NCBI RefSeq assembly: GCF_003334385.1
Contig: NZ_QOWN01000121.1
Length of the DNA stretch: 1,207 bases
DNA from: Escherichia coli
GTDB lineage: Bacteria; Pseudomonadota; Gammaproteobacteria; Enterobacterales; Enterobacteriaceae
Reading direction: 5' to 3' (one strand)
The notes under the pieces were generated by a model that saw only the letters and a program-made list of their open reading frames with translations, made no database searches and was not told the origin of the DNA. How positions within the stretch are numbered: position 1 is the first letter of the stretch; each line of letters begins with the position of its first letter. Position numbers and translations under genes: made by a program. This document shows, piece after piece, positions 1 to 1,207 of the stretch.

Positions 1-313
1 CGCTCAAGCAACAGCGCATTCTGGCGCATGATCCGGTAAACACGTTTGGCATTGATCGCAGGCATACCATCAAGTTCTGCCTGTCTGCGAAGCAGCGCCC
101 ATACCCGACGATAACCATACGTGGGCAGCTCTCCGATAACATGGTGTATACGGAGAAGCACATCCGTATCATCAGTGTGACGACTGCGGCGGCCATCCAT
201 CCAGTCATCGGTTCGTCTGAGAATGACGTGCAACTGCGCACGCGACACCCGGAGACAACGGCTGACTAAGCTTACTCCCCATCCCCGGGCAATAAGGGCG
301 CGTGCGCTATCCA
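1..313 (-). CDS. insD: IS2 OrfB (InsD), DDE transposase catalytic part, N-terminal ~104 codons only; 3' end truncated by the window edge
   Basis: Manual translation of the reverse complement of 1-313 from the GTG at 313-311 gives (V/M)[103 protein letters not shown], recognised as the InsD N-terminus. It is in the -1 frame relative to orfA and overlaps its 3' end. It is absent from the ORF track because it has no ATG and no stop inside the window. Confidence 0.85.
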
Positions 314-637
314 CTTTTTTGCCCGTCCATATTCAACGGCTTCTTTGAGGAGTTCATTTTCCATCGTTTTCTTGCCGAGCAGGCGCTGGAGTTCTTTAAT
401 CTGCTTCATGGCGGCAGCAAGTTCAGAGGCAGGAACAACCTGTTCTCCGGCGGCGACAGCAGTAAGACTTCCTTCCTGGTATTGCTTACACCAGAGAAAT
501 AACTGGCTGGCTGCTACACCATGTTGCCGGGCAACGAGGGAGACCGTCATCCCCGGTTCAAAGCTCTGCTGAACAATTGCGATCTTTTCCTGTGTGGTAC
601 GCCGTCTGCGTTTCTCCGGCCCTAAGACATCAATCAT
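272..637 (-). CDS. insC: IS2 OrfA (InsC), the small helix-turn-helix DNA-binding / regulatory transposase subunit, 121 aa
   Basis: The supplied ORF 272..682(-) contains [49 protein letters not shown]...[15 protein letters not shown], recognised as IS2 InsC. I place the start at the ATG at 637-635 (residue 16 of the track ORF), which has the GGAG ribosome-binding site upstream. The track's longer N-terminus begins at a GTG inside the IRL and is unlikely to be real. Stop is TAA at 274-272. Confidence 0.9.
314..320 (-). other. Programmed -1 ribosomal frameshift slippery heptamer A AAA AAG, joining orfA to orfB to make the OrfAB transposase
   Basis: The minus strand reads GGGCAAAAAAGTGGATAGCGCAC. 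In the orfA frame this is GCA AAA AAG TGG. After a -1 slip the reading continues AAA AAA GTG GAT AGC..., giving [15 protein letters not shown]..., which matches the InsD N-terminus. A6G frameshift sites are the established mechanism in IS3-family elements. Confidence 0.7.
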
Positions 638-642
638 CTGTT

Positions 643-646
643 CTCC
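643..646 (-). promoter_or_regulatory. Shine-Dalgarno (GGAG) for IS2 orfA
   Basis: The minus strand reads CATTGGAGAACAGATG: GGAG followed by a 5-nt spacer and the orfA ATG at 637-635. Confidence 0.5.
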
Positions 647-676
647 AATGACTAGTCTAAAAACTAGTATTAAGAC

Positions 677-696
677 TATCACTTATTTAAGTGATA
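677..696. repeat. 9-2-9 palindrome TATCACTTA-tt-TAAGTGATA straddling the inner edge of the IS2 IRL
   Basis: Seen directly: 677-685 TATCACTTA, 686-687 TT, 688-696 TAAGTGATA, a perfect reverse complement. It lies between the terminus and the orfA start, where the IS2 promoter/operator is reported. Its function is inferred, not shown. Confidence 0.6.
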
Positions 697-728
697 CTGG
701 TTGTCTGGAGATTCAGGGGGCCAGTCTA
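688..728 (-). repeat. IS2 left terminal inverted repeat (IRL, ~41 bp); element terminus at position 728
   Basis: The minus-strand sequence starting at 728 is TAGACTGGCCCCCTGAATCTCCAGACAACCA..., the characteristic IS2 terminus. The exact inner boundary is taken from the published ~41-bp IRL length, not measured here because the right end is absent. Confidence 0.75.
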
Positions 729-913
729 GTCAGTGATCTACAGCCTGTTGAATAAAACCCCGGATGCTTCCCCCGATTCTGCAAGTAATACTTCGGTTAT
801 TTGCACTATTTTATCCCTGTTGAATTTGGTTAAGCCGGTGCAGACGCGCCGGGAAACGCACACCTGAACCGGCACAATAAAATACAATACAACCCCCTGT
901 TACTGGAGAAATG

Positions 914-945
914 TAAGCGTCAACGGAGCACCGTATTGACGCTTA
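914..945. repeat. Perfect palindrome / hairpin (10-bp arms TAAGCGTCAA / TTGACGCTTA, 12-nt loop) at the IS66-like terminus, overlapping the transposase stop codon
   Basis: Seen directly: 914-923 TAAGCGTCAA and 936-945 TTGACGCTTA are exact reverse complements. The loop CGGAGCACCGTA can form an extra 3-bp stem (CGG/CCG). On the plus strand it is followed by TTTATT (946-951), so it resembles an intrinsic terminator in that orientation. Confidence 0.6.
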
Positions 946-1128
946 TTTATTGGTGAGTACTACGTTCCATGGCAGGAGTTCGTCAACTCGGTTGGAAGGC
1001 CATTCCGGCAGTACGCTCAGGATATGGCGCAGATACGCTTCCGGATCGATACCGTTCAGACGGCAGGTGCCGATCAGCCCGTACAACAGTGCTCCACGCT
1101 CGCCGCCGTGATCGCTGCCAAAGAACAT
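943..1128 (-). pseudogene. IS66-family transposase (TnpC-like), C-terminal 61-codon fragment
   Basis: ORF 943..1128(-) translates to MFFGSDHGGERGALLYGLIGTCRLNGIDPEAYLRHILSVLPEWPSNRVDELLPWNVVLTNK. This matches the conserved IS66 transposase C-terminus pattern (WLFAGSD.GGERAA..YSLIGTCKLNG.DPEAYL...ELLPWN). Full-length proteins are ~500 aa, so about 90% is missing. The frame immediately upstream is closed by stop codons. Confidence 0.6.
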
Positions 1129-1180
1129 AAAGATGGTATGACCTTTATATACTCACTATAGCATTGGTGGGATATTCCAG

Positions 1181-1186
1181 AGGAGG
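1181..1186 (+). promoter_or_regulatory. Strong Shine-Dalgarno AGGAGG, 5 nt upstream of the ATG at 1192
   Basis: Positions 1181-1194 read AGGAGGTCATTATG: a consensus ribosome-binding site with optimal spacing to an ATG. Confidence 0.4.
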
Positions 1187-1191
1187 TCATT

Positions 1192-1207
1192 ATGCATTCG
1201 GAAAATA
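1192..1207 (+). CDS. 5' end of an unidentified ORF (M-H-S-E-N...), running off the window 3' edge
   Basis: ATG at 1192-1194 preceded by AGGAGG, then CAT TCG GAA AAT. Only 5 codons are visible, so no product can be assigned. The call rests entirely on the translation-initiation context. Confidence 0.25.

Follow-up and report, generated by a model that had tools for sequence, protein, structure and literature searches.

A chromosomal scrap of Escherichia coli probably carrying three nested insertion sequences, with ISEc45 splitting the tnpC gene of ISEc23

Some insertion sequences (IS) have their natural target inside another mobile element, as exemplified by IS4321 and IS5075 (IS1111 group) with their insertion sites in the terminal repeats of Tn21-family transposons. 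The IS110/IS1111 family is known for site-specific insertion, and a seekRNA is required for its members ISEc11 and ISEc21, of which ISEc21 targets a conserved site in the transposase genes of the IS3 family (PMC11187229). ISEc45, an IS110-family element in the naming of ISfinder and RefSeq, appears in the literature only in the lists of genome-survey papers and in the protein set of the same study. Here we describe a stretch of 1,207 bases from Escherichia coli (assembly GCF_003334385.1, contig NZ_QOWN01000121.1), referred to as the window throughout, which on the reading of its sequence is made up of three known E. coli insertion sequences, IS2 (IS3 family), ISEc23 (IS66 family) and ISEc45, nested on a scrap of chromosome.

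The window was compared with complete E. coli genomes (5,426), plasmids, metagenome contigs and species-representative genomes, and sequence reading combined with this comparison divided it into four blocks, namely 1-728, 729-912, 913-1132 and 1133-1207 (Table 1). Over positions 1-1132 the window is 99.6% identical to strain MEI4BO-21 (L001), in which IS2 and an uninterrupted ISEc23 directly border the spacer and which is the only complete genome with the window's arrangement of full IS2, spacer and ISEc23. Past 1132 this identity ceases and the sequence becomes that of the ISEc45 left end. Very probably, the window goes back to three transposition events that took place separately on a single chromosomal scrap, with ISEc45 splitting the tnpC gene of ISEc23. 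The element copies are near-identical to known ones, so that chance is no issue for this observation; all three elements are routinely annotated, and the finding as such is already known and ordinary.

A preliminary description of the window had placed an IS2 terminus at 728 and an IS66-family terminus at 913, separated by a gap of 184 bp and both on the minus strand, and all of these coordinates were confirmed. It had counted two IS families, overlooking the ISEc45 left end at 1133-1207, which brings the number to three. Its view of an IS-scarred junction in accessory, cargo-free DNA held as far as the scarring, the accessory nature and the lack of cargo inside the window are concerned, while the proposed plasmid or prophage-border setting had to be given up: the spacer is chromosomal at 2,934 of 2,935 places, and in relatives it has sgc-type phosphotransferase system genes on one side and the fec operon on the other. 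Its chromosomal location led us to reject an origin from a plasmid or prophage.

Table 1 Features of the 1,207-base window with their positions, strands and supporting matches.
Feature	Position	Strand	Basis
IS2 (IS3 family), left 728 bp	1..728	-	99.5-99.6% identity to IS2 copies; remainder runs off the window start
IS2 OrfB (InsD), N-terminal part, via -1 frameshift	1..319	-	NF006918 'IS2 transposase TnpB', positions 1-104 of 301, E 2.9e-68
IS2 OrfA (InsC), complete, 121 aa	272..637	-	NCBIfam NF006928 'IS2 repressor TnpA', 274 bits vs cut-off 229, full length
26-bp quasi-palindrome in the IS2 left non-coding end	653..678	.	opposite orientation to IS2 of L001 and to the intact GE3 copy
Native E. 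coli chromosomal DNA, 184 bp (spacer)	729..912	.	uninterrupted in strain SK1144 (100% identity), both flanks contiguous
ISEc23 (IS66 family) right end: terminal inverted repeat and last 62-63 tnpC codons	913..1132	-	interrupted at 1130-1132 by ISEc45
Hairpin-forming palindrome in the ISEc23 terminal repeat	914..941	.	TAAGCGTCAA...TTGACGCTTA; DNA fold
ISEc45 left end (IS110 family, IS1111-type layout)	1133..1207	+	75/75 identity to RefSeq-annotated ISEc45 copies
Subterminal inverted repeat ATGACCTTT of ISEc45	1138-1146		read in the window
AGGAGG in the ISEc45 left end	1181-1186		
ISEc45 transposase start ATG	1192	+	encodes MHSEN..., 5 codons in the window

Alignment of the window with L001, carrying the uninterrupted ISEc23, and with an ISEc45-bearing relative (L002) located the switch exactly after ...GAACATAAAG, and ISEc45 may be taken to start anywhere from 1131 to 1133, since AG is found next to either end of the element. 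The few transposase codons visible in the window can be compared with the ISEc45 protein in supplement file 6 of PMC11187229, which begins MHSENIAAYVG. In relatives, ISEc45 has a length of 1,447 bp and encodes a transposase of 377 amino acids (aa). For a copy with an identical left end (L009), this transposase scored 280 bits on NF033542 'IS110 family RNA-guided transposase' (cut-off 140) and also matched Pfam PF01548 and PF02371, in agreement with a DEDD (RuvC-like) transposase of the IS110 type. The ends of the element, which has subterminal instead of terminal repeats, consist of AGATG(G/A)T (7 nt) followed by ATGACCTTT on the left and of AAAGGTCAT followed by AAG (3 nt) on the right, the left half being visible at 1131-1146. 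Together with a non-coding region of 252 nt located 3' of the transposase gene in the relatives, this corresponds to the IS1111-type layout, and the IS1111 layout of Siddiquee et al. 2024 (PMC11187229) matches the ISEc45 geometry.

The IS66-family element had been taken to be reduced to its last ~220 bp, with an upper limit at 1128. That position is an internal Met codon, the homology reaches 1132 (1130 if the ambiguous AG is given to ISEc45), and in relatives the IS66-family gene resumes beyond ISEc45, which argues for a split rather than for a deletion remnant. In the relatives L002, L006, L007 and L009, the order is IS66 TnpA, TnpB, N-terminal TnpC, ISEc45 transposase on the opposite strand and a C-terminal remnant of 61 aa, and when the 61-aa remnant was searched as an exact protein, six of the ten contexts retrieved, all of them different from that of the window, had this split order as well. 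Following the right end of ISEc45 (...AAAGGTCATAAG), the relatives resume with ...CATAAG^AGTTTTTCTTTCCGAGACAG (here and below, a caret marks the junction), exactly as in uninterrupted ISEc23, and in every relative with IS66 sequence adjoining both ISEc45 ends the IS66 gene continues directly behind the 1,447-bp insert. What looks like a short IS66 end remnant beside GAACAnnnAG^ATG(G/A)TATGACC should therefore be read as an ISEc45-split element and not as a deletion.

According to the proposed order of events, IS2 would have inserted at ...gacgca^GTCAG and ISEc23 184 bp beyond IS2, after GGAGAAAT and in the same direction as IS2. ISEc45 would then have entered the tnpC gene of ISEc23 in antisense, splitting off its last 62-63 codons, with the entry point lying in the codons for the motif G-K-K-N-F-M-F-F-G-S (DNA GAACATAA-AG-TTTTTCTTTCC). 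The rest of ISEc45 and of ISEc23 would be expected just past base 1207, and an ISEc23 split in this way should be unable to make full-length TnpC.

The wider distribution of ISEc45 fits this course. Its left end was found in 915 records (869 genomes), of which 845 (818 genomes) join it to the IS66 site, i.e., contain the IS66/ISEc45 junction. The insertion position is always GAAGAACA-NNN-AG^ with one orientation, both junctions share the ambiguous AG alone with no further target duplication, and the target, read from the sequence, encodes the TnpC motif named above. As judged from these sequences, ISEc45 insertion is site-specific and orientation-specific. Across copies, 73-75 of the 75 left-end positions are identical, whereas the adjoining 100 nt of the host IS66 flank are 72-100% identical, indicating that the hosts diverged long before the insertions took place, which in turn speaks for repeated independent targeting rather than for the spread of one composite.

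Three other explanations were weighed against nested transposition. Only ~220 bp of IS66-family sequence are visible in the window, and IS-associated deletions do occur at this locus, where IS2 and ISEc23 of L001 are without target duplication, so that the element might have been cut down to its terminus by a deletion, for which IS2 might be responsible, with 1129-1207 as an unrelated flank. This we consider extremely unlikely, given that 1133-1207 and the ISEc45 left end show 100% identity, transposase start included, that IS2 lies beyond the ISEc23 terminus and the 184-bp chromosomal spacer, both of them intact, and that the IS66 gene continues after ISEc45 in relatives. A second concern is the assembly itself, because two junctions lie just 220 bp apart in a high-copy repeat and reads of different IS copies might have been collapsed into a chimeric join, in which case the combination of spacer, ISEc23 and ISEc45 would exist in no genome. 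Two observations weigh against our interpretation: the combination of spacer, ISEc23 end and ISEc45 was absent from the 5,426 complete E. coli genomes, the plasmids, the metagenome contigs and the species-representative genomes, and the window stops 75 bp into ISEc45, so that the continuation of ISEc45 and ISEc23 in this genome lies outside the view. Each junction is nevertheless known from elsewhere, the one between IS2 and spacer being real in L001 and GE3, the one between spacer and ISEc23 being contained, together with the IS66 end, in the stretch 729-1132 that is 100% identical to the best listed of 52 genomes covering it (with an intact ISEc23 at this site), and the one between ISEc23 and ISEc45 occurring in the 818 genomes mentioned. 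Moreover, a fresh insertion into another ISEc23 copy is what would be expected of a site-specific element, and absence from databases is weak evidence, making an artefact very improbable.

The high number of junctions could also be explained by a single ancient insertion that gave an IS66::ISEc45 composite, subsequently spread in trans by intact IS66-family copies and involving no active targeting. The split element retains both IS66 ends, so that mobilisation in trans would be possible, and groups of loci share variants of flank, left end and right flank, e.g., CGTAG / ATGAT / AA in L002, L015, L017, L019 and L022. Across copies, however, the ISEc45 left end is 97-100% identical, while the host flanks of L002 and L010-L013 reach only 72-91%, so that the insertions must be independent, and the family is known for site-specific insertion (PMC11187229). 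As a complete explanation the spread of one composite is thus very unlikely, although part of the high junction count could stem from the spread of already-split IS66::ISEc45 units.

How ISEc45 would find its site can be proposed by analogy with its described relatives. Target choice might be made by a seekRNA or bridge RNA that is encoded in the ~250 nt following the transposase gene and pairs with the two halves of the target. The non-coding region is predicted to fold into a long basal stem with an internal loop holding CACGUAG. Several observations weaken the case for such RNA guidance. The fold, with -72.7 kcal/mol, is just modestly better than that of shuffled sequences (z = -2.4). A k-mer search of the non-coding region against target and junction sequences gave a best guide-like match of 10 nt (ATAAGAGTTT) to the right junction, of marginal significance with 22 of 500 shuffles reaching it, and the candidate loop CACGUAG equals the ISEc43-type flank exactly but shares no more than 4 of 7 bases with CATAAAG, the flank in ISEc23. 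Furthermore, the ISEc45 transposase is 15-25% identical to other IS110/IS1111 transposases in the published identity matrix (PMC11187229). An Rfam scan of the window and of L002 yielded no RNA family for the ISEc45 non-coding region (isrC was hit in a different spacer of L002 only), and the ISEc45 copies are nearly identical and hence uninformative for covariation in this region.

Within the predicted internal loop, the ISEc45 copies of L006 (5482-5508) and L016 carry CATATAG in place of CACGTAG. Both are located in ISEc23-type sites with the left flank CATAAAG, which CATATAG matches at 6 of 7 positions, compared to 4 of 7 for CACGTAG. This variant may hint at natural retargeting, a hint that is weakened by the presence of CACGTAG copies in CATAAAG sites as well. 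A loop 7-mer covarying with the left flank was rejected as a candidate, with CACGTAG copies occupying both CACGTAG-type and CATAAAG-type sites.

A junction-promoter mechanism is known for the IS110/IS1111 family, and the ends of ISEc45 are compatible with it. No sigma-70-like promoter was found in the integrated left end of ISEc45, whereas joining of the two ends brings a perfect -35 box TTGACA, located in the right end (L007/L009), to a distance of 17 nt from TATGAC in the left end (window 1137-1142). This arrangement would fit a circle-junction promoter (TTGACA, 17 nt, TATGAC), in which case expression of the transposase would require that the element has been excised as a circle.

We see about an even chance that ISEc45 is a naturally programmed RNA-guided element dedicated to the GKKNFMFFGS codons of IS66-family TnpC, parasitising and inactivating a different IS family on both chromosomes and plasmids of E. 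coli, with the window representing a fresh insertion into a chromosomal ISEc23 copy left free in the complete genomes examined there, and the difference between CACGUAG and CAUAUAG reflecting natural retargeting between ISEc43-type and ISEc23-type sites.

At the ISEc23 end, three contexts, the window together with L001, L002 and an uninterrupted locus (L003), part just before GTAAGCG at 913 (+/-1 base). The terminal repeat at this position reads GTAAGCGTCAACGGAGCACCG, and the other end of the element in L001, reverse-complemented, reads GTAAGCGTAAACTGACCGCCG. From 943-1131 on the minus strand, 62 residues match Pfam PF13817 'IS66 C-terminal element' (1.6e-17), and the same region matches positions 348-385 of 387 of NCBIfam transpos_IS66 NF033517, consistent with the C-terminal domain of TnpC. 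The order tnpA-tnpB-tnpC, which lies outside the window, was seen in relatives at the same chromosomal site and in split copies. The 8-bp target duplication of ISEc23 is lacking in the relatives sharing the insertion (L001 and GE3), where the flanks are GGAGAAAT vs GAAACTGC. Judging from the flanking sequences, this copy marks a rearrangement breakpoint, with the spacer on one side and, on the other, an IS3-type fragment adjacent to the fec operon; the missing duplication leaves its identity as ISEc23 unaffected, since the sequence itself is 100% identical.

The palindrome within the terminal repeat, just outside the tnpC stop codon (943-945), folds with -12.7 kcal/mol (z = -5.4), a value equalled by none of 200 shuffles. 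It might serve transposase binding or act as a terminator.

Between the two insertions, the spacer corresponds to the uninterrupted locus of strain SK1144, which reads ...gacgca^GTCAG...GGAGAAAT^gcctgcg, and it is present at full length in 859 genomes. The Rfam scan of the window gave no RNA family in the spacer. It is best described as debris, either non-coding or from a pseudogene, that lies upstream of a decayed oxidoreductase gene and has been enclosed by the two insertions. That IS2 could have truncated its neighbour, as had been suggested, is contradicted by the intact ISEc23 terminus and by the colinearity of the 184 bp with the SK1144 chromosome: because the spacer is continuous in uninterrupted genomes, IS2 did not truncate the IS66-family element.

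The IS2 copy itself is easily recognised. Its end at 728 (...GGGGGCCAGTCTA) coincides with the end of an intact, 1,331-bp IS2 in strain GE3, and near-identity to this GE3 copy (99.5% over 728 bp) is accompanied by the terminal inverted repeat at the element end. The A6G frameshift motif (AAAAAAG) can be read directly at 314-320 on the minus strand, where OrfA and OrfB overlap.

As to the history of this IS2 copy, the preliminary description had proposed to look for GTCAG as target duplication at the far IS2 end, and in the closest relative, L001, IS2 is instead flanked by ATCGT and GTCAG, i.e., without a 5-bp duplication. GE3 carries an intact IS2 ~5.4 kb upstream with ATCGT on both sides, a perfect duplication, as well as a 262-bp IS2 left-end remnant abutting GTCAG, and the block between these two positions, comprising aldose epimerase, fucP, rbsK and deoR, is missing from L001. 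The flanks of the L001 copy together with the missing block are what homologous recombination of one IS2 copy with another would leave behind. At 478 and 490 the window IS2 has the bases of the intact GE3 copy, and at 659-672 those of the GE3 remnant, so that it would be either a similar recombinant with another crossover point or the descendant of an originally complete copy. Since IS2 copies at this locus have recombined, tests for a target duplication mislead here. In the closest relatives, a matching target duplication is absent from IS2 as well as from ISEc23, and both therefore mark rearrangement breakpoints, which suggests that both insertions were later involved in rearrangements.

Between the terminal repeat of IS2 and the start of orfA lies a quasi-palindrome with a 14-bp core flanked by the 6-bp repeats TAGTCT and AGACTA (653-678). 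The only four positions at which the window's IS2 differs from that of L001 and from the intact GE3 copy (659, 662, 669 and 672) amount to the exact reverse complement of 653-678. Both orientations were found among the fetched IS2 copies, even inside the single genome GE3, and the inversion looks like a template-switch or small-inversion polymorphism.

Two further loci from the comparison show ISEc45 in other surroundings. A second, independent triad of IS2, short spacer and IS66::ISEc45 with the same relative orientations is located in the iha-sat pathogenicity island (L002 6001-7280) and recurs in many human isolates among the matches listed. In this triad, ISEc43 is the IS66 element hosting ISEc45, and a fragment of a further IS makes up the 256-bp spacer; part of the spacer (L002 6748-6870) matches the Rfam family isrC (an Hfq-binding small RNA) with 97 bits, inside a fragment annotated as transposase. 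In L021 (CP042953.1, 1203011-1211196), two ISEc45 transposase genes in the same orientation are 2.1 kb apart and each is preceded by a different variant of the IS66-type left flank (TAAAG and CGTAG), which suggests tandem or nested split IS66 elements.

Beyond correct annotation, the importance of the window is small, as it consists of mobile-element debris free of cargo. The strict preference of ISEc45 for one conserved site in IS66-family transposase genes, which adds to a type of behaviour already known and lies mostly beyond the window, provides a natural example of an IS targeting an IS and a possible test case for RNA-guided targeting of the IS1111 type, for which a direct precedent exists in the insertion of ISEc21 into IS3-family genes.

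With known IS2 the window shares near-identity over 728 bp, the terminus and the two reading frames OrfA and OrfB together with the A6G motif for -1 frameshifting, yet it holds just the left 55% of the element and has the 26-bp quasi-palindrome inverted relative to some other copies, and the 5-bp duplication is missing in the closest relative. With ISEc23 the window has in common the GTAAGCG terminal repeat, the PF13817 domain and 100% identity over 913-1132, whereas this chromosomal copy is interrupted in tnpC by ISEc45 and is without the 8-bp duplication in relatives. The left end of ISEc45 is identical in all 75 positions and has the MHSEN transposase start as well as the site and orientation seen in the 818 E. 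coli genomes; unlike ISEc45 elsewhere, only the first 75-77 bp are present, and the genomes examined at the site have this chromosomal ISEc23 copy free of ISEc45.

Among the described IS110/IS1111 elements, ISEc21 is similar to ISEc45 in being a DEDD-transposase element that inserts with a fixed orientation and without duplication into the conserved-motif codons of the transposase gene of another IS family (PMC11187229), the difference being the target, i.e., the GKKNFMFFGS motif of IS66-family tnpC for ISEc45 and IS3-family transposase genes for ISEc21. A long non-coding region adjoining the transposase gene is common to ISEc21, ISEc11 and ISEc45, and ISEc11, an IS1111-family element with a seekRNA, also shares the subterminal repeats with extensions of 7 nt and 3 nt; for ISEc11 the seekRNA is established, whereas for ISEc45 it is predicted only. 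At the level of the transposase, ISEc45 is as distant from the other members of the matrix as stated above. Finally, IS4321 and IS5075 resemble ISEc45 as IS110/IS1111-type elements with a natural target inside another mobile element, the target being a terminal repeat in their case and the coding sequence of a transposase in the case of ISEc45.

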